NCBI RefSeq assembly: GCF_030684315.1
Contig: NC_081385.1
Span: 12,806,606-12,870,605 of the forward strand
Direction of reading: 5' to 3'
Length of the DNA: 64,000 nt
Origin: Stegostoma tigrinum
Taxonomy: Eukaryota
The notes beneath the pieces were generated by a model, which ran no database searches, had not been told where the DNA came from, and saw only the letters and a list, made by a program, of their open reading frames with translations. Shown piece after piece: positions 15,397 through 63,560 of the stretch. A program made the position numbers and the translations under genes. Numbering within the stretch: position 1 is the first letter of the stretch; each line of letters begins with the position of its first letter.

Positions 15397-15591
15397 GAGA
15401 TAACAAGGTGTAGAGCTGGATGAACACAGCAGGCCAGGCAGCATCAGAGGAGCAGGAAAGCTGACATTTTGGGTCTGGACCCTTCTTCAGAAATGCTTTC
15501 CTGCTCCTCTGCTACCAGGCCTGATGTGTTCATCGAACTCTACACCTTGTTATCTCAGATTCTCCAGCATCAGCAGTTCCTGCTATCTCCC
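15397..15591. mobile_element. Fold-back Penelope-derived mini-element
   Basis: Inverted arms ~15397-15461 and ~15495-15557 of the Penelope terminal sequence. Flanking direct repeat ATTTAAATT(C)(T/C)AGT at 15383-15396 and 15592-15605. Confidence 0.85.
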
Positions 15592-16966: not shown

Positions 16967-16992
16967 GTAAGCTGCATGGAAATTGAAAATTT

Positions 16993-17120
16993 CTGATGAA
17001 GCGTCTAGGCCCGAAACATCAGCTTTTGTGCTCCTAAGATGCTGCTTGGCCTGCTGTGTTCGTCCAGCTCCGCACTTTGTTATCTTGGATCCTCCAGCAT
17101 CTGCAGTTACCATTATCTCT
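16993..17120 (+). mobile_element. Solo Penelope (Neptune-type) 3' terminus with hammerhead-like core
   Basis: CTGATGAAGCGTCTAGGCCCGAAACATCAGCTTTTGTGCTCC..., nearly identical to the terminus at 56526-56614. Confidence 0.85.
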
Positions 17121-39150: not shown

Positions 39151-39989
39151 ATGTTTTTAACAAAGAATAATGTTTTCTAATAATTATTATATCTTCCCAA
39201 ACTGCTCCCATTAATACCTTGAAACGATCAAATTAAACCATGTCTTAAGCTTCTAAATTCCAGAGAATACAACTTGTAATTTCCCTTTGTAATTTAATCA
39301 TTGGAGTCCAGATATTATTCTATAAATTCAAGCTACGCTCTTTTTCCCAAAAAAAATTCTGCCTGAAGTGTGTTGACCAGAACTAATCAGTCTAGGCCAG
39401 AAACGTCAGCTTTTGTGCTCCAAAGATGCTGCTTGGCATGCTGTGTTCGTCCAGCTGCACACTTAGAATACAAGATAACAACCAACCAGGAGTTTGTAGA
39501 GCTAAAGAACAGCTTTTACCCCTTTGTACATTTCATTAGCCTTTTTGATTATTATCTGTACTTGTTCTAAGCAGTGAATTGGGTAAATGTAAATCTTTGG
39601 GTAAATGTTAAAATCATAATTTAAATATTATAGAATGCATGTGAAAATTAGCTTAATGCAAATCCTTCACAATCCAGGCACTATTACTTTGTACTTTGTT
39701 ATAAAGATTAATCAATGTGTTCTTTGTACTGCTTTCTCTGTTATCATTGTGGTGGATCTCTGGGGCAGTTGTGCCCTAGATCAGCGTCAATGGCGATTGC
39801 TAGAAGCTAGGCAGTTAACAAACAATTTCTAAGAAGGTACAGCTACTGATTATAATCTCTTACATCATTAACAAGGCATACCAGATTTGGCATAAGCTCT
39901 TTACAATATAGTTTTCTCTAAAATCCTCTGTCCTAATTCACCTTGTTTGTTCCTTGAGGTTGTGAAATAATTCTCATTCCTATTCTAAC

Positions 39990-40880
39990 CACGCGTGACA
40001 TTTTTCCATAACCACCCTTGCCTGCCTTGTGGAGAGACCACTCTCTCCATGACACCCTTGTCCACTCCACACTCCCCTCCAACCCCACCACACTCGGCAC
40101 CTTCCCCTGCAACCGCAGGAAGTGCTACACTTGCCCCCACAACTCCTCCCCTCACCCCCATCCCAGGCCCCAACATGACTTTCCATATTAAGCAGATGTT
40201 AGCCTGCACATCTGCCACTGTGGTATACTGCATCCACTGTACTCTGTGTGGCTTCCTCTACATTGGGGAAACCAAGCGGAGGCTTGGGTACTGCTTTGCA
40301 GAACACCTCCCCTCGGTTTGCAATAAACAACTGCACCTCCCAGTTGTGAACCATTTTAACTCTCTCCTCCCATTCTTCAGATGATATGTCCATCCTGGGC
40401 CTCCTACAGTGCCATAATGATGCCACTCAAAGGTTGCAGGAACAGCAACTCATATTCCGCTTGGGAACCCTGCAGCCCAAGGGTATCAATGTGGACTTCA
40501 CAAGCTTCAAAATCTCCCCCTCCTCCACCGCATCCCAAAACCAGCCTAGCTTGTCCCCGCTTCCCTAACTTGTTCTTCCTCTCACCTATCCTCTCCACCT
40601 CAAGCCGCACCTCCATTTCTCACCTACCAACCTCATCCCCCTTCCTTGACCTGCCTCTCCTCCCTGGACTGACCTGTCCCCTCCTCATCCATACCCTCCT
40701 CTCCACCTATCTTCTCCTTTATCCATCTTCAATCTGCCTTCCCCCTCTCCCTATTTATTTCAGAACCCTCTTCCCCATCCCCCTCTCTGATTGAAGGGTT
40801 TAGGACCGAAACGTCAGCTTTTGTGCTCTTGAGATGCTGCTTGGCCTGCCGTGTTCATCTACCTTCACACTTTGTTCTCC
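39990..40880 (+). mobile_element. Penelope-like element (Neptune-type) 3' fragment: GIY-YIG endonuclease region plus terminus
   Basis: VVYCIHCTLCGFLYIGETKRRLG; same family as 55047-56614 but more diverged and frameshifted. Terminal hammerhead core is mutated (CTGATTGA..). Confidence 0.92.
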
Positions 40881-42609: not shown

Positions 42610-42733
42610 CTTAGGAGCGTCTAGGCCCGAAACGTCAGCTTTTGTGCTCCTAAGATGCTGCTGGGCCTGCTGTGTTCATCCAACTCCACACTTTGTTATC
42701 TCGGATTCTCCAGCATCTGCAGTTCCCATTATC
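42610..42733 (+). mobile_element. 5'-truncated Penelope terminus with perfect 14-bp TSD
   Basis: GCGTCTAGGCCCGAAACGTCAGCTTTTGTG...CCCATTATC flanked by TCTAATTCAGCCCT at 42596-42609 and 42734-42747. Confidence 0.9.
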
Positions 42734-48558: not shown

Positions 48559-48790
48559 CAAAAACAGAAAGCCCTGTAGAAGCTCATCAGGTCTGGCAGC
48601 ATCTACGGAGAGACAGAACCAGTGTTAACAAGTGTTAACATTTCAAATCCAATGACCCCTTGTCAGAACGTCTGGGCTCAATATGTTAACTCTGTTTCTC
48701 TCTCTACAGATGCTGTCAGACCTGCTGAGCTTCTACAGGGCTTTCTGTTTTTGTTTCAGATTTCCAGCATCTGCAGTTCTTTGTTCTTAT
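48559..48790. mobile_element. Fold-back Penelope-derived mini-element (second family)
   Basis: Arms 48559-48630 and 48684-48753 are reverse complements; tail CAGATTTCCAGCATCTGCAGTTCTTTG. Confidence 0.8.
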
Positions 48791-50794: not shown

Positions 50795-51612
50795 AAGGTC
50801 ATAGAGTTATGCAACACAGAAATGGACCCTTTGGTCCAACCTGTCCATACTAACCAGAACAGTAAATGGTCTAGTCCCATTTACCAATATTTCATCCATA
50901 ACCCTCTTAAACCCTTCCTATTCATATACCCATCCAGATGCCTTTTAAATGTCATAATTTGGTACCCTTCTCCACCACTTCCCCTCACAGCTTGTTCCAT
51001 TCATGCACCGCCCTCTGTGTGAGTAAGTTGCTCTTCGGGTCCCTTTTAAATCTTTCCCCTCTCAACTATGCCCACTAGTTTTAGACTCCCCTAGACTGAG
51101 AAAAATACCTTGGTTATTCACCCTATCCATGCCCTGCTAATTTTACATCACCCCTCAGCTTCCAGTGCTCCAGGGACAAAAGTCCCAGCCAATTCAGTCC
51201 ATTCCTTTGGCTCAAACCTTCCAATCCGGTAGCATCCTTGTAAATCTTTTCTGCACCCTTTCAAGTTTAACAACATCTTTCCTACAGCAAGGAGACTAAA
51301 ATTGAAGAGAAGAAAACGGAAGTTGCTGGATAGGCACAGAGTTAACTCTCATTTCTCTCCATAGATGCTGCCAGACTGGCTTGGCTTATCCAGCACCTTG
51401 TGTTTTTGTCTCTGATTTACAGAATCCACAGTTCATTTGGTTTTTACCGACCAGAATTGAATGCAGTATTCTAAAATTAGCCTCACCAATGTTACGTAGC
51501 ACCAAAACATGATATCCCAATTCTGATACTCAATCATTGACCAAAGGCAAGCATACTAAATGCCTTCTTTACCATCCTGTCTACCTGCAACTCCACTTTC
51601 AAGGAACTATGA
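50795..51612 (-). mobile_element. CR1/HER1 LINE 3' fragment interrupted by a Penelope mini-element (51307-51448)
   Basis: Reverse CR1 tail (GTCATAGAG..ACAGAAA.GGACCCTT.GGTCCAAC). The insertion is flanked by GACTAAAATTGAA / GACCAGAATTGAA. Confidence 0.8.
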
Positions 51613-52356
51613 TGGCAGAAGTTTAGTAACTTGACAAAACACAATAAGAGACAGGTTGCGTGTGCTAGATAAGATGATGTCCCCTGTTCTGGTTATTGTT
51701 AATCATTAAGGCTGATAGTGAGAAGAAGCTAGGTCTTCCATTTGCTGAAAGAATTACTGGAACCTAGAGGAGCATTCAGACATCTAAGCTCTTTTAGTGT
51801 ACTACTCAAGAACTTGCCTGATTAGTATTGATGTAGGTCTAGGAGAGGGTAGGTTTCCTTCTTTACTAACAATAGGACAGTGCATGCATTACAAGAGGAT
51901 AGACGTTATGAGGCTTCAGTAAAATAAAGTTTGGAATTTTAAATTTGCACACGCACAATTATAATGCGGGGGAGTCTGTTAGCTCAGTAAACCGTGTAAC
52001 CACTTAGCCAAAGCCTCTGGGGTCTTGGGACTCTGCCAGTTCTCTGAGATAAGGCACAGTAGTTAGATGTATTGTGGAAAGAAATTGCACTGGAAAAGTG
52101 TTTGATCTTACTCGAGTATCGGTGTACAATGAAGAGATTTGAGTGATCGAGTGCGTGTAAAATATTGCTTCATGGAAATATCATTCATTCAATATTTTTT
52201 GCTTTAATAGCAGGCCAGGTAGCACCAGATGGGCAGGAAAGCTGACATTTCGGGTCGGGACCCTTCTTCAGAAATAGCTATCTGTATTAAGATTATTTGT
52301 TTCTTTTTATTTTAAGTCATGTATTTATACTGACACATATGGTTTTGTTTATTCAG

Positions 52357-52410
52357 GTGGGGCCACAGTGGCTACAAAGAGCTTTATCCAGAGGAATTTG
52401 AATCTGAGAG
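52357..52410 (+). CDS. NKAPD1: NKAPD1 coding exon 4
   Basis: cag|..WGHSGYKELYPEEFESE(S)|gtaatt. Confidence 0.96.
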
Positions 52411-52519
52411 GTAATTTTAAAAAGAGGCTCAGCATGGTTGTAAGTGCAGAGACCTACTGTAAATCTAACATGAAAAGAATATTGGGGACAACTAAGAAAG
52501 ACTTGAATATATCTATAGT

Positions 52520-52830
52520 GCCTTTGCTGATCTGACGATATTTTAATGTGTTTCACAGCCAGTGAAGTACTTTTGAAGCATAATCTCTTTTGTAACAAAG
52601 AAAACATGGAGTCAAATTGCACATGGCAAACTCCTACAGACGGATATGTGATAATCATCAATTTATCTGTTTTTGCATTGTTGGCTGAGGGATAAATAAT
52701 GGCCAGGGCACTGGTGATAATACTTTGGACATCTTCAACATCATAGAATCTTTTACACCCGCCTGAGACGGCAGACAAGGCTTGCATTTTAACATCATAT
52801 CTGGACACTGCCACCTCACAAGTGAATATG
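52520..52830 (-). mobile_element. DeuSINE-like element (AmnSINE1/SacSINE1 Deu domain)
   Basis: The reverse complement GAGGTGGCAG...GATGTTAAA...TGTCTGCCGTCTCAGGCGGGTGTAAAAGATTC...CCCTGGCCATTATTTATCCCTCAGCCAAC resembles the recalled Deu-domain consensus. Confidence 0.6.
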
Positions 52831-52984
52831 AGGAGTTTTAGCATGGGAAGAGTATTGAATGGTGAGTCAAATGTCACCTTGAATTCCTATTTGCAATTCC
52901 CGCCCTGACGTATGTCCTGGTGTTGGACACAGAGAATACAGGATTGATGTGAGTTTGCCCGCTGAGCTGGAAGGTTAGTTTTCA

Positions 52985-53018
52985 GACGTTTCGTCACCAT
53001 TCTAGGTAACATCATCAG
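52985..53018 (-). ncRNA. Minimal type I hammerhead ribozyme motif (antisense copy)
   Basis: Exact reverse complement of 56741-56774. Confidence 0.75.
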
Positions 53019-53849
53019 TGAGCCTCCGATGAAGCGCTGGTGTAATGTCCCGCTTTCTAGTTATCTGTTTAGGTTTTCTTGGGTTGGTGATGTCATTTCC
53101 GAATGCAGTTTCGTTTGTGTGCGTTGGGATGGTTTAGAATGGTTTGGGATGCATTAGGGGGATGCATTAGAACATTATTCCAACGAGCCACCACACACTG
53201 CAGCACAGAGGAACTGCGAAGAGCAGAAGAAAATCACCTATACAGCGTATTCAAAAAGAACGGGTACCCTATGAACACAGTCCGCCGATTTCTCAGCAAC
53301 ACACCCAAACGAACAGACAAAACAGGCCCAGAAACCATAATCACTCTCCCCTACATCATTTCCGAAATGACTGCCAGAATACTCTGACCTCTTGGCATCA
53401 GGGTAGCCCACAAACCCACCAACACACTAAAACAGCAACTAATGAACTTAAAATACCCTATACAGACATCAAGCAAAACGAACGTCATCTACAAAATACC
53501 TTGCAAGAACTGTGAGAAACACTACATTGGACAAACAGGCAGAAAGCTAGCCACCAGGATACATGAACATCAACTAGCCACAAAACGACATGACCCACTA
53601 TCATTAGTATCCTTACATACAGATGAGGAAGGACACCACTTTGATTGGGACAACACATCCATCCTAGGACAAGCCAAACAGAGACACGCACAAAAATTCC
53701 TAGAAGCATGGTATTCCAACCGGAACTCCATCAACAAACACATTGATTTGGAGATAATGGGAACTGCAGATGCTGGAGATTCCAAGATAATAAAATGTGA
53801 GGCTGGATGAACACAGCAGGCCAAGCAGCATCTCAGGAGCACAAAAGCT

Positions 53850-53877
53850 GACGTTTCGGGCCTAGACCCTTCATCAG
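53850..53877 (-). ncRNA. Minimal hammerhead ribozyme motif (antisense copy)
   Basis: Exact reverse complement of 56526-56553. Confidence 0.65.
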
Positions 53878-56525
53878 AGAGGGGGATGGGGGGAGGGAAC
53901 TGGAATAAATAGGGAGAGAGGGGGAGGCGGACCGAAGATGGAGAGTAAAGAAGATAGGTGGAGAGGGTGTAGGTGGGGAGGTAGGGAGGGGATAGGTCAG
54001 TCCAGGGAAGACGGACAGGTCAAGGAGGTGGGATGAGGTTAGTAGGTAGCTGGGGGTGCGGCTTGGGGTGGGAGGAAGGGATGGGTGAGAGGAAGAACCG
54101 GTTAGGGAGGCAGAGACAGGTTGGACTGGTTTTGGGATGCAGTGGGTGGGGGGGAAGAGCTGGGCTGGTTGTGTGGTGCAGTGGGGGGAGGGGATGAACT
54201 GGGCTGGTTTAGGGATGCAGTAGGGGCAGGGGAGATTTTGAAACTGGTGAAGTCCACATTGATACCATTAGGCTGCAGGGTTCCCAGGCGGAATATGAGT
54301 TGCTGTTCCTGCAACCTTCGGGTGGCATCATTGTGGCAGTGCAGGAGGCCCATGATGGACATGTCATCAAGAGAATGGGAGGGGGAGTGGAAATGGTTTG
54401 CGACTGGGAGGTGCAGTTGTTTGTTGCGAACTGAGCGGAGGTGTTCTGCAAAGCGGTCCCCAAGCCTCCGCTTGGTTTCCCCAATGTAGAGGAAGCCGCA
54501 CCGGGTACAGTGGATGCAGTATACCACATTGGCAGATGTGCAGGTGAACCTCTGCTTAATGTGGAATGTCATCTTGGGGCCTGGGATGGGGGTGAGGGAG
54601 GAGGTGTGGGGGCAAGTGTAGCATTTCCTGCGGTTGCAGGGGAAGGTTCCGGGTGTGGTGGGGTTGGAGGGCAGTGTGGAGCGAACAAGGGAGTTACGGA
54701 GAGAGTGGTCTCTCCGGAAAGCAGACAGGGGAGGGGATGGAAAAATGTCTTGGGTGTTGGGGTCGGATTGTAAATGGCGGAAGTGTCGGAGGATAATGCG
54801 TTGTATCCGGAGGTTGGTAGGGTGGTGTGTGAGAACGAGGGGGATCCTCTTGGGGCGGTTGTGGCGGGGGCGGGGTGTGAGGGATGTGTTGCGGGAAATG
54901 CGGGAGACGCGGTCAAGGGCGTTCTCAATCACCGTGGGGGGAAAGTTGCGGTCCTTAAAGAACTTGGACATCTGGGATGTGCGGGAGTGGAATGTCTTAT
55001 TGTGGGAGCAGATGCGGCGGAGGCGGAGGAATTGGGAATAGGGGATGGTTACGTGGAACAGTCCCTCTTCCGCACCTACACAGGCCCCAAACCCCACCTC
55101 TTCCTCCGGTACATTGACTGTATCGGCGCCGCCTCTTGCTCCCCAGAGGAGCTCGAACAGTTCATCCACTTCACCAACACCTTCCACCCCAACCTTCAGT
55201 TCACCTGGGCCATCTCCAGCACATCCCTCACCTTCCTGGACCTCTCAGTCTCCATCTCAGGCAACCAGCTTGTAACTGATGTCCATTTCAAGCCCACCGA
55301 CTCCCACAGCTACCTAGAATACACCTCCTCCCACCCACCCTCCTGCAAAAATTCCATCCCCTATTCCCAATTCCTCCGCCTCCGCCGCATCTGCTCCCAC
55401 GATAAGACATTCCACTCCCGCACATCCCAGATGTCCAAGTTCTTTAAGGACCGCAACTTTCCCCCCACGGTGATTGAGAACGCCCTTGACCGCGTCTCCC
55501 GCATTTCCCGCGACACATCCCTCACACCCCGCCCCCGCCACAACCGCCCCAGGAGGATCCCCCTCGTTCTCACACACCACCCTACCAACCTCCGGATACA
55601 ACGCATTATCCTCCGACACTTCCGCCATTTACAATCCGACCCCAACACCCAAGACATTTTTCCATCCCCTCCCCTGTCTGCTTTCCGGAGAGACCACTCT
55701 CTCCGTGACTCCCTTGTTCGCTCCACACTGCCCTCCAACCCCACCACACCCGGCACCTTGCCCTGCAACCGCAGGAAATGCTACACTTGTCCCCACACCT
55801 CCTCCCTCACCCCCATCCCAGGCCCCAAGATGACATTCCACATTAAGCAGAGGTTCACCTGCACATCTGCCAATGTGGTATACTGCATCCACTGTACCCG
55901 GTGCGGCTTCCTCTACATTGGGGAAACCAAGTGGAGGCTTGGGGACCGCTTTGCAGAACACCTCCGCTCAGTTCGCAACAAACAACTGCACCTCCCAGTC
56001 GCAAACCATTTCCACTCCCCCTCCCATTCTCTTGATGACATGTCCATCATGGGCCTCCTGCACTGCCACAATGATGCCACCCGAAGGTTGCAGGAACAGC
56101 AACTCATATTCCGCCTGGGAACCCTGCAGCCATATGGTATCAATGTGGACTTCACCAGTTTCAAAATCTCCCCTTCCCCTACTGCATCCCTAAACCAGCC
56201 CAGTTCATCCCCTCCCCCCACTGCACCACACAACCAGCCCAGCTCTTCCCCCCCCACCCACTGCATCCCAAAACCAGTCCAACCTGTCTCTGCCTCCCTA
56301 ACCGGTTCTTCCTCTCACCCATCCCTTCCTCCCACCCCAAGCCGCACCCCCAGCTACCTACTAACCTCATCCCACCTCCTTGACCTGTCCGTCTTCCCTG
56401 GACTGACCTATCCCCTCCCTACCTCCCCACCTACACCCTCTCCACCTATCTTCTTTACTCTCCATCTTCGGTCCGCCTCCCCCTCTCTCCCTATTTATTC
56501 CAGTTCCCTCCCCCCATCCCCCTCT

Positions 56526-56553
56526 CTGATGAAGGGTCTAGGCCCGAAACGTC
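56526..56553 (+). ncRNA. Minimal hammerhead ribozyme motif of the Neptune element
   Basis: CUGAUGA-A-GGGUC UA GGCCC-GAAA-CG-UC with palindromic ACGU helix III. Helix I is only about 2 bp by eye. Confidence 0.65.
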
Positions 56554-56731
56554 AGCTTTTGTGCTCCTGAGATGCTGCTTGGCCTGCTGTGTTCATCCAG
56601 CCTCACATTTTATTACATTGATTTGGAGCCCATCTACCATCCTCTGAGAAAAAGAACAGGAAATGACATCACCAAACCAAGGAAACCTAAACAGATAAAT
56701 AGAAAGCGTGACATAACACCAGCGCTTCATC

Positions 56732-56790
56732 GGAGGCTCACTGATGATGTTACCTAGAATGGTGACGAAACGTCTGAAAACTAACCTTCC
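56732..56790 (+). ncRNA. Minimal type I hammerhead ribozyme of the Poseidon element
   Basis: UCA-CUGAUGA-U-GUUACC(UAGAAU)GGUGAC-GAAA-CG-UC|UGA. Helix I is UCA/UGA plus distal GGAGG/CCUUCC. Confidence 0.8.
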
Positions 56791-56961
56791 AGCTCAGCGA
56801 GCAAACTCACACCCAGAAACTCAGCCTGAGCTACAAATCTTCTCTAAACTCGCTAATACAGGATTGAATCTAGCAGTGAACGCCTCCACTGTAGAATAGC
56901 AGTTCACTTTCCAGCCTTTCATGTGAGCAGCAACCCCTCACTTAGAGTGCCGGTTGTCATT

Positions 56962-57352
56962 GAAATAAAACAAAATGCTGCAGAGGCTGGAGATTTGAAA
57001 CAAACACACGGAAATGCCTGGAGAAATTCAGTTCTCAAGAAGGGTCACAGGACGCAAAACATTAATTCTGTTTTCTCTCCAAAGAATCTGCCAGACCTGA
57101 GCGTCTCCAGCAATTTCTATTTTTGTTTGTATGAGTTGCCATTGTTTTGGGAAGGAAAAAGAACAAAGATACTAAATCCAAATAAAGCAAAATATTGCAG
57201 ATACCGGAAAAACTCAAATCTGTCAGCGTCTGTGGAGAGAGATAAACTATATTGTCTCAAGTCAGTATGACTCTTCAGAAAATGTTGACTGTTTCTTTCA
57301 CCACAGATGTTGCCATACCTGCTGAGTTTCTCCAGCATTTTCTGTGTTTATT
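56962..57352. mobile_element. Two adjacent old fold-back Penelope mini-elements
   Basis: ~56962-57130 and ~57180-57352 each show AAA..AAAAT.(C/T)TGCAGA..C..G then the inverted ..CCTG(CT)GAG..TCTCCAGCA.TTT, like the element at 48559. Confidence 0.6.
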
Positions 57353-57739
57353 TAAGACGTTATGTCCCTTCAATTGCAGTTACATCTAAGCATGTAAAGC
57401 ATCAAAAGTAAATGTGTAAGATCTGAGAGTTCTTCTACTACTTTACTCTGAACCCAGTAAAATGCTAGCCGAATTATATTCCTCCCCAATAAGCATCACC
57501 TTCACCAGCTGTGTATGACTCCACCACAGGCTGTGCCCTGTTAGCCGGTCTCTGTCTAACTTCTAATTTCAGATTTGCCCCCTATACCAAGTTTGTCAGT
57601 TCCGAGTCTGTCCACCAGAGCCTTGTCTGCCGTCACACTTTTTTTTTGCTTTCAACTCCGTTTTAGTTGCAACATCTGGTCATTTGATATCTGGATCAGG
57701 TGATTGCTTCAATCAAACAAGGGAATCTGCTACTTGTTT

Positions 57740-58396
57740 ATCCCTGAAAGTTTCCACCCAGGTTGATAGGGTTGTTAAGAACGTGCACAGTGTGTTAGGT
57801 TTTATTGGTAGAGGGATTGAGTTTCAGAGCCATGAGGTCATGTCGCAGCTGTACAAAACTCTGCTGCGGCCGCACTTGGAGTATTGCGTACAGTTCTGGT
57901 CGCCGCATTATAGGAAGGATGTGGAAGCGTTGGAAAGGGTGCAGAGGAGATTTACCAGGATGTTGCCTGGTATGGACGGAAGGTCTTATGAGGAAAGGCT
58001 CAGGGACTTAAGGCTGTTTTCGTTAGAGAGAGGAAGGTTAGGAGGTGACCTAATCGAGAAAACAAGGTGATCAGAGGATTAGATAGGTTGGACAATGAGA
58101 GCCTTTTTCCTCAGATGGAGATGGCTAGCACGAGGGGACATAGGTTTAAATTGAGGGGTGATAGATATAGGACAGATGTCAGAGGTAGATTGTTTACTCA
58201 GGTAGTAAGGGCGTGGAATGCCCTACCTGAAACAGTAATAGACTCGCCAAGTTTAAGGGCATTTAAATGGTCATTGGATAAACTTATGGATAATAATGGA
58301 ATAGTGTAGGTTAGATGGGCTTCGGTTTGGTTTCACAGGTTGGCGCAACATTGAGGGCCGAAGCATCTGTACTGCGCTGTAGTGTTCTCTGTTCTA
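57740..58396 (+). mobile_element. CR1/HER1 LINE 3' fragment (relatively young)
   Basis: LYKTLLRPHLEYCVQFWSPHYRKDVEALERVQRRFTRMLPG with a TGTTCT tail. Confidence 0.92.
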
Positions 58397-58640
58397 AAAA
58401 GGAAAAAAGTACAGTTACACTGTGTGAATTGCAAATTTGCCTTGCTTGTGCTGTGGGGCCTCATACTTTTGTCACTGGCAGTGAAAGCAGTCTGTTAGTA
58501 TGATTTTTTTTGCCTCTTCATCTCAGTGATCAACTGTGGCATAATTCCGTTATGCCTGTCTTAGAAATGTCTGCTTCTGGATTAAATAAAGGTTTCTTAA
58601 AACTCAAAGCAAGAATTAACTTGTTATTTTTAATTTCTAG

Positions 58641-59172
58641 TGACCATAAAGATAGCAGCGATGAACGCACTGCCAATGGAACAAAAGCCATATGCTTGAA
58701 GTCTTCAAAATCAAACTCGCGAAAACGCAAGCGATCAAGTAAATCAAATAAAAAGAAACGCAAGAAGAAATCTAGCAAAAAGATGAGGAGGAAGAAACAT
58801 CTACGGAGCAGTGATTCTTCAAGTGACAGTGAAAGCTCAGAGGAGGTGGATTCTGATCAGAGGAAAAGAAGGAAAGCGAAGAAGAAGCACCATAGAAAAA
58901 CTACGCGAAAGCAGAAAAAGTTATCATCCACCTCCTTTGAAAGTGAAAGCAATTCGTCACACAGCAGTGATTCAGACACAACTAGCAAAGATGAAAGTGA
59001 TTCTGGGAGTCAGCTGGAGAAAAGGAAAAAGAAAAGAAAGAAAAAGCGTCACAGGAATATTCCCAAAGATGATGGTGATAAAGAAATAAAAAATAGCCGA
59101 AAGAAGAGAAAAAACTGGAAAATAGCACACAATGATACTTCAGATGACAGTGGAGAAGATGACTTGAATTAG
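58641..59172 (+). CDS. NKAPD1: NKAPD1 last coding exon
   Basis: tag|..DHKDSSDERTANG...Lys/Ser-rich...KRKNWKIAHNDTSDDSGEDDLN*. Confidence 0.93.
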
Positions 59173-62045: not shown

Positions 62046-63560
62046 ATTTAGACATTAGACAATAGGTGCAGGAGCAGACAATTCGGCCCGTCGAGCCAGC
62101 GCCACCATTCATTATGATCATGGCTGAGCATCCACAATCAGTATCCTGTTCCTGCCTTATCCCCATAACCCTTGATTCCACTATCTTTAAGACCTTTATC
62201 CATCTCTTTCTTGAAAGTAGCCAGAGAGTTGGCCTCCACTGCCTTCTGGGGCAGAGCATTCCATATATCCACCACACTCTGGGTGAAGAAGTTTTTCCTC
62301 AACTCTGTTCTAAATGGCCTACCCATTATTTTTAAACTGTGTCCTCTGGTTCTGGACTCACCCATCAGCGGAAACATGCTTCCTGCCTCCAGAGTGTCCA
62401 ATCCTTTAATTATCTTATACTCCTCAATCAGATCCCCTCTCATCCTTCTAAATTCAAGTGTATACAAGCCCAGTCACTCCAATCTTTCAACATATGATAG
62501 TCCCACCATTCCAGGAATTAACCTCGTGAACCCACACTGCACTTCCTCAAATTTGGAGACCAAAACTGCATACAAACCAAACAGGTAGATGAGAGTAAAC
62601 CGGTTGATGTGGTGTATATGGATTTCAGCAAGGCGCTCGATAAGGTTCCCCACAATAGGCTATTGTACAAAATGCGGAGGAATGGAATTGTGGAAGATAT
62701 AGCAGTTTGGATCGGAAATTGGCTTGCTGAAAGAAGATAGAGGGTGTTAGTTGATGGGAAATGTTCATCCTGGAGACCAGTTACTAGTGGTGTACCGCAA
62801 AGGTCGGTGTTGGGTCCACTGCTGTTTGTCATTTTTATAAATGACCTGGATGAGGGCGTAGAAGGATGGGTTAGTGAATTTGCAGACGACACTAAGGTCG
62901 GTGGAGTTGTGGATAGTGACGAAGGATGCTGTAGGTTGCAGAGTGACATAGATAAGCTGCAGAGTTGGGCTGAGAGGTGGCAAATGGAGTTTAATGCAGA
63001 CAAGTGTGAGGTGATGCGCTTTGGTAGGAGTAACCGGAAGGCAAAGTACAGGGCTAATGGTAAGATTCTTGGTAGTGTAGATGAGCAGAGAGATCTCGGT
63101 GTCCATGTACATTGAAACATATAAAATAATCAGAGGGTTAGATAGGGTGGATAGGGAGAGCCTTTTTCCTAGGATGGTGATGGCGAGCATGAGGGGGCAT
63201 AGCTTTAAATTGAGGGGTGAAAGATATAGGACAGATGTCAGAGATAGTTTCTTTACTCAGAGAGTGGGAAGGGAATGGAACGCTTTTCCTGCAACGGTAG
63301 TAGATTCGCCAACTTTAAGTACGTTTAAGTCGTCATTGGATAAGCATATGGACGTACTTGGAATAGTGTAGGTTAGATGGGCTTCAGATCGGTATGACAG
63401 GTCAGCACCACATCGAGGGCCGAAGGGCCTGTACTGTGCTGTAATGTTCTAAGTTCTAATACTCCAGGTGCGGTCTCACTAGAGCCCTGTATAGCTGCAG
63501 AAGGACCTATTTGCTCCTATACTCAATTCCGCTTGTTATGAAGGCCAGCATTACATTTGC
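62046..63560 (-). mobile_element. CR1 LINE 3' fragment (minus strand), split by a nested insertion
   Basis: ORF YTLEFRRMRGDLIEEYKIIKGLD. CCAAAACTGCATACAA (to 62575) rejoins TACTCCAGGTGCGGTCTCAC (from 63460). Confidence 0.88.
62576..63458 (+). mobile_element. CR1/HER1 LINE fragment nested in the opposite orientation
   Basis: VTSGVPQRSVLGPLLFVIFINDLD...FADDTKVGG RT motifs, an internal deletion at ~63110 and a TGTTCTAAGTTCTA tail. Same family as 57740-58396. Confidence 0.92.

Follow-up and report, generated by a model that had tools for sequence, protein, structure and literature searches.

A 64,000-nt stretch of the Stegostoma tigrinum genome (contig NC_081385.1, positions 12,806,606 to 12,870,605 of the forward strand), referred to as the window and used for all coordinates below, carries four hammerhead ribozyme cores within a single intron of the NKAPD1 gene. 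The cores lie in two nested insertions, an inner element B inside an outer element A, whose endonuclease (EN) frame is split by B. The comparisons and predictions presented here make it very probable that a young Penelope-like element (PLE) sits inside an older PLE, that each of them is a head-to-head double copy, and that the four hammerheads, as passengers, are predicted to leave the host RNA uncut.

The host of the four cores is the last NKAPD1 intron on the + strand (52411-58640, 6.2 kb). An NKAPD1 intron had already been named in a preliminary description of this DNA, and protein matches, the exon map, an in-frame splice and a contig at the acceptor all support it. With the last NKAPD1 coding exon as query, 34 proteins were matched, the best of which are named NKAPD1 and come from sharks and rays; PF15692 is present in 33 of the 34. 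A shark NKAPD1 protein aligns exon by exon to the + strand of the window, and use of the donor after 52410 and the acceptor before 58641 leaves the spliced reading frame open. A 3,403-nt contig from a same-organism run starts at 58639, at the acceptor, with 0 differences and a depth of 442. This run has no depth on intron-unique sequence and behaves like RNA, its library type being unlabelled. The features of the locus are as follows.

52357..52410, + strand: penultimate NKAPD1 coding exon, 54 nt, with a GT donor after it
52411..58640, + strand: last NKAPD1 intron, 6.2 kb, holding the nested insertion
52935..52947: left 13-bp target-site duplication of A
52948-56854: outer element A, whole, between the 13-bp duplications
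52948..53100, - strand: inverted arm of A, 153 nt, differing from the sense arm at 6 positions, tail-less
52985..53018, - strand: antisense hammerhead core A
53101..53753, + strand: body of A, 5'-truncated, with the inversion junction, the end of the open reading frame (ORF), which has one stop, and a GIY-YIG endonuclease; no CxxC linker was seen
53740..53753: left 14-bp target-site duplication of B, its last 3 nt common to the tail
about 53754-56614: inner element B, whole, between the 14-bp duplications
53754..55048, - strand: inverted arm of B, about 1.29 kb, with a tail of roughly 33 nt at 53754-53787
53850..53877, - strand: antisense hammerhead core B
55047..56614, + strand: sense arm of B, 1.57 kb, with the 3' part of the reverse transcriptase (RT), CxxC linker, GIY-YIG, 3' untranslated region and pseudo-long terminal repeat (pLTR); tail-less
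56526..56553, + strand: sense minimal hammerhead core B, predicted cut after 56553
56615..56628: right target-site duplication of B, where the reading frame of A resumes
56629..56854, + strand: 3' end of A, with ORF end, pLTR and a tail of roughly 43 nt
56741..56774, + strand: sense minimal hammerhead core A, predicted cut after 56774
56855..56867: right 13-bp target-site duplication of A
58641..59172, + strand: last NKAPD1 coding exon, up to the stop codon

The four cores had been reported before, with the upstream two as exact reverse complements of the downstream two, and this was confirmed. Each unit is surrounded as a whole by one target-site duplication (13 bp for A, 14 bp for B) and has a tail on one arm only. 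The arms of B differ at 11 of 1,261 positions (99.1% identity) and those of A at 6 of 153 (96%); the higher identity in B fits the nesting order, in which B is the younger element. A contig of a related organism matches the window from exactly 56855, the first base of the right duplication of A (56855-56947), and continues with 69 nt unlike the window. This contig, which covers one junction, is a weak hint of an empty orthologous site for A in that organism.

By their sequence, A and B are EN-containing (EN+) PLEs. The sense arm of B is 98.8% identical to a full-length B copy (L231), whose 1094-aa frame has matches below the Pfam cut-off to RVT_1 (E=1e-5) and to GIY-YIG (E=0.002). For A, GIY-YIG alone was recovered (E=6e-4, below the Pfam cut-off). 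The pLTRs are arranged as inverted arms in A and B, and a direct partial pLTR lies upstream of the ORF in L231. Between RT and EN, the translation of B has a Cys-rich linker and that of A has none. In PMC8557442, a zinc-finger-like RT-EN linker is present in Neptune and absent in Poseidon; by this linker criterion, without a tree, we infer that B would be of the Neptune type and A of the Penelope/Poseidon type. A non-LTR retrozyme, with non-coding tandem repeats and a type I hammerhead per unit, was rejected as a class, A and B being inverted and carrying ORF remnants. A and B are two shark families within the published PLE kind and show nothing different in kind. No printed description of the two families was found in the literature searched, whose coverage excluded subscription papers and Repbase; the supplements of PMC4209133 may list shark motifs.

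The cores are not chance occurrences but ordinary ones: exact pattern matching across the genome gave 92,176 copies of the 28-nt B core and 6,988 of the 34-nt A core, against 0 for reversed-pattern controls. The exact B core thus occurs once per 35 kb of genome, and its copies outnumber the 9,000 given for Xenopus tropicalis about tenfold (PMC4209133). The layout of the locus recurs as well. Among the first 100 matches listed for the A core, 18 divergent and 0 convergent adjacent pairs lie within 3 kb, and among the first 100 listed for the B core the figures are 9 divergent versus 2 convergent. Young B pairs have a tail on one arm only in 36 of 37 cases, and a flank word of at least 10 nt is common to both sides in 27 of 37, with a mode of 14. 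An inverted, 5'-truncated copy in head-to-head arrangement and a one-sided tail of 30-40 bp are typical of PLEs (PMC8557442, PMC3846280), and the complex insertions of EN+ PLEs in these papers have the same inverted 5' copy, one-sided tail, duplication around the unit and GIY-YIG after RT. Opposite-strand pairs of minimal hammerheads 100-700 bp apart were reported in 2014 (PMC4209133), and the insertion of one published PLE into another, Pen2a into Pen3, has also been described.

A route to this layout is offered by the Anolis Poseidon element PAc (Frangieh et al. 2024, PMC11167929). Both target strands are nicked and extended by the purified Poseidon protein, whose two neighbouring start sites define the tail, and the shark elements show the same two adjacent 3' ends. 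Priming on both strands as in PAc would explain the head-to-head units. Each double copy was then likely made by the element enzyme in one event: the element protein would nick both target strands about 14 bp apart, and two cDNAs would be primed from two adjacent pLTR start sites and then joined at their 5' ends. Two cDNAs copied from opposite strands and joined in this way would place the antisense arm first in either direction of the host gene. It is likely that the layout of the NKAPD1 locus is an ordinary by-product of PLE insertion and not an evolved safety catch.

Other repeats were seen in the window. An older solo B-type hammerhead remnant lies antisense at 52209-52272 (- strand), within the NKAPD1 intron before the last one, with its palindrome decayed. 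B-type remnants whose cores are broken or missing lie at five other places, 15415-15580, 16992-17113, 39390-39455, 39997-40873 and 42619-42729; the first is a short fold-back and the last has a 12-bp duplication. A 55-nt inverted repeat at 48559-48753 (91% complementary, arms 85 nt apart, related arms at 51354 and 57074) is probably another short fold-back family. High-copy repeat fragments, which by eye resemble 3' ends of long interspersed nuclear elements, occupy 57690-58400 and 62590-63460, and read depth is very high at 57700-58400.

Both cores contain the CUGAUGA and GAAA boxes, an extra base after A9, the G10.1-C11.1 pair, a palindromic CG at 15.2-16.2, and H17. The metazoan PLE minimal hammerhead ribozyme (min-HHR; Cervera and de la Pena 2014, PMC4209133) has the same boxes, extra base A9/10.1, G10.1-C11.1 pair, palindromic 15.2-16.2 and pLTR location. 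The presence of these marks in both cores agrees with their earlier attribution to PLE minimal hammerheads with a palindromic helix III. Core A has a helix II of 6 bp, helix III ACGU and a helix I of 3 bp; in core B, helix II has 4 bp, helix III is again ACGU and helix I has 2 bp. The 4-bp helix II of B is unlike the min-HHRs of PMC4209133, where helix I has 4-5 bp in Schistosoma motifs, as against 2-3 bp in the shark cores, and 2 bp in D. virilis. In 135 B-type motifs, selected on their boxes and on the outer pairs of helix II, the CG is kept in 108 and C17 in 134. Helix I has 2 bp in 118 of them, and pair 3 is U-C in 117. Since, in addition, the upstream 14 nt are identical in 50,991 exact B-core copies, the short helix I is the family state of B. 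Covariation was discarded as a proof of structure; the 135 motifs hold too few variants (helix II pair 4: U-G 125, U-A 5, C-G 3). In two of them (L057:1490-1540 and L060:1490-1540), chance 5' junctions give a 6-bp helix I before an intact core, and activity could be higher in these copies than is usual for the family.

Folding z-scores of the cores were +0.78 and -0.39 for B and -1.19 and -2.49 for A. In the best predicted folds CUGAUGA pairs with the cut-site strand, and these folds are more stable than the hammerhead fold by 9 and 4 kcal/mol. The Rfam hammerhead models, whose use was proposed in the preliminary description, gave no match, whether at the gathering score across the window or with E up to 10 across 52800-57000; this is uninformative for minimal motifs. 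The direction of these predictions agrees with published tests of minimal hammerheads: a PLE motif did not cleave as a monomer and cleaved weakly as a dimer (PMC4209133), and a Poseidon hammerhead did not cleave without the element protein (PMC11167929).

A dimer between the two families had also been thought conceivable. In the double-hammerhead model, as read from the literature, ACGU pairing swaps strands, and helix I consists of the 5' strand of one copy and the 3' strand of the other. As described before, the sense cores start 215 nt apart on the same strand and share ACGU between GAA and the cut; the 4-bp duplex is predicted at -3.1 kcal/mol. However, the first pair of the swapped helix I is mismatched in both halves (U-U in one, A-A in the other), leaving 0 contiguous pairs both ways. 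Both cores are moreover predicted to be buried in long duplexes, and their adjacency is due to B having landed 113 nt upstream of the core of A. We consider it extremely unlikely that a cross-family double hammerhead of this kind cuts the intron.

Copy ends point to where the RNA of B likely starts and, less cleanly, to where it may be cut. The 5' end of young B copies falls within -8 to +6 of the core in 29 of 108, compared with 12 over the 191 nt upstream, and element B RNA likely starts just before the hammerhead core. Genome-wide, 3,158 copies start at the predicted cut (with three non-matching bases before it); the positions one base downstream and two bases upstream have 405 and 179 starts, respectively. 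The idea that the cut leaves no footprint, taken from samples with 2/148 and 2/108 copies, was overturned in part by these counts. Inspection by eye of the first 100 cut-site starts listed assigned about 65 to fold-back junctions whose centre is the 4-nt palindrome directly following the cut, and about 10 others are compatible with a different microhomology. Scaled up, the quarter left over corresponds to roughly 800 copies, some two to four times the counts at the neighbouring positions. The cut-site starts would fit cleavage in the element's own particle, and microhomology can inflate their count.

In the NKAPD1 pre-mRNA, the antisense arms probably pair with the sense arms. For each core with 20 nt on each side, sense-antisense duplexes are predicted at -154 and -148 kcal/mol, the self-folds reaching -12 to -21 kcal/mol, and about 1.17 kb of the B duplex is able to form before core B is transcribed. 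While the sense arm is being transcribed, the two B arms would form a 1.26-kb duplex, around which the A arms would then close over 153 bp, with both cores buried. Two AATAAA signals that the inverted arm of B places on the pre-mRNA strand (53789-53794 and 53904-53909, +) lie within the predicted duplex. For a 1.26-kb duplex of 99% identity, A-to-I (adenosine-to-inosine) editing or small RNA production would be the likelier consequences.

The preliminary description went further and proposed a safety catch, in which silencing by the earlier antisense copies could make fold-back insertions tolerated in introns. In this reading the sense hammerheads would cut the pre-mRNA, and selection would keep fold-backs and remove solo sense copies. 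The predicted duplexes, far more stable than the ribozyme folds, speak for this proposal, as does the transcription of the antisense arm ahead of the sense arm; the cut-site starts in the genome hint at in vivo activity. Selection of this kind was looked for in 14 genes, namely 5 glypican genes, TRAPPC9 and 8 of 14 Eph matches. The sequence taken from inside them totals 1.58 Mb, or 0.05% of the genome. One Eph exon of this genome shows 99-100% identity to proteins of carpet sharks. The stretches, a small sample of long genes, come from both chromosome strands and were each oriented to the pre-mRNA; no exon match lies downstream of 6 of the 8 Eph stretches or of the final 90 kb of TRAPPC9, and these were assumed to be intronic. 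A putative, unannotated desert of 170 kb between a leucine-rich repeat gene at 38.0 Mb and a glypican gene at 41.3 Mb on C6 was used as control.

The genes hold 299 B-type arms, and 246 of these have a pLTR (122 sense, 124 antisense). Pairs with a gap of up to 120 nt are head-to-head in 76 cases and tail-to-tail in 0. As a head-to-head pair reads antisense arm and then sense arm on both strands, the antisense-first order, though real, is automatic; it is explained by geometry alone and carries no selection signal. Solo intact B cores showed no orientation bias in the 1.58 Mb (15 sense versus 11 antisense, p=0.56; 8 and 9 in the exon-bounded stretches alone), with 35 sense and 43 antisense among the solo non-intact cores. 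For family A, the solo intact cores in genes are 3 sense and 2 antisense. Nor was a mating bias of intact cores seen in genes: 20 of 35 sense and 20 of 31 antisense cores are mated (p=0.62). The mate lies over the core in 16 of 35 sense and 15 of 31 antisense cases, which leaves 19 of the 35 intact sense cores without antisense cover. Fold-backs are not in excess in genes relative to the putative desert (mated arms 135/246 versus 31/56, 55% each, p=1.0), and the density of exact B cores is 28.5 per Mb in genes, from 45 cores in 1.58 Mb, compared with 28.8 per Mb for the whole genome. A host-linked placement of tails was also rejected; antisense-arm tails are in excess (37 versus 23, p=0.09), but this comes from + strand genes (22:10) and not from - strand genes (15:13).

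The enrichment of intact sense cores in fold-backs or in one orientation, expected in the preliminary description, is thus absent. The strong form of the safety-catch hypothesis fails, and a weak bias is compatible with the sample. Of the earlier claim that antisense copies pair with and silence the sense copies, predicted pairing stands and the adaptive safety catch does not. Taken as a whole, selection for fold-backs that silence an active ribozyme is very unlikely to explain the locus.

Several observations weigh against reading the hammerheads as inert passengers. The sample contains 26 solo intact cores, the 95% interval of the sense share is 0.37-0.77, and mild depletion is compatible with it. 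In the first 800 kb alone, exact cores were 9 sense versus 17 antisense; as a candidate signal this antisense excess was dropped, since it levelled to 21 sense versus 24 antisense in the full 1.58 Mb. B-type arms of all ages are twice as dense in the single desert stretch as in genes (329 versus 156 per Mb), and Xenopus retrozymes are under-represented in introns (10.64898/2026.07.22.740005). Finally, the 3,158 starts at the cut versus 405 and 179 beside it indicate that the motif is probably not dead in every context.

The absent bias and the cut-site starts would both also be accounted for if solo cores cut the pre-mRNA at a low rate while exons are still joined co-transcriptionally; no bias would then arise and the fold-back would be irrelevant. 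Intron cleavage is tolerated by splicing. On the other hand, a lone minimal hammerhead needs a same-family partner, and one same-strand intact pair within 500 nt was found in 1.75 Mb. The helix I of 2-3 bp and the misfolding also argue against such cutting, and both cores in the NKAPD1 intron are predicted to be in duplex anyway. We regard tolerated cutting as unlikely.

For the passenger reading favoured here, burial of the cores by the antisense arms would be redundant. A helix I of 2-3 bp, no stable helix III and the need for a same-family partner and probably for the element protein would already keep the motifs from cutting, and in other introns sense copies without protection are retained no less often than antisense copies. 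Tentatively, and without leaning towards it, we put forward that shark PLE hammerheads may be gated: situated at the RNA 5' end, they would cut only in their own ribonucleoprotein, giving rise to the cut-start copies, and would be inert in pre-mRNA, hence about 100,000 of them without an orientation bias in introns.

Two published systems differ from the shark elements in informative ways. The ORF of PAc starts inside the hammerhead, whereas that of shark B starts downstream of the tail, and PAc is known from in vitro tests, while A and B are known here from sequence alone (PMC11167929). The amniote intronic hammerheads, in RECK and other genes (PMC6155905), are likewise of type I and on the sense strand of an intron. 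They are canonical, single and conserved across species, whereas the shark cores are minimal, young and among about 100,000 copies, and show no sign of selection.

The NKAPD1 locus is one of tens of thousands, and both its layout and its motif are already published PLE features. Had the safety catch been true, a retroelement would have been found to render a harmful ribozyme tolerable to its host in a new way. Instead, no selection was seen against unprotected sense hammerheads in the introns sampled, and a safety catch appears unneeded. The absent bias supports a picture in which PLE minimal hammerheads lack activity except within the particle of their own element, and the indications of RNA start and cut site are relevant to the function of PLE hammerheads. 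If the gated-ribozyme reading is true, this vertebrate genome would offer a natural test, with large n, of hammerhead activity that depends on protein.

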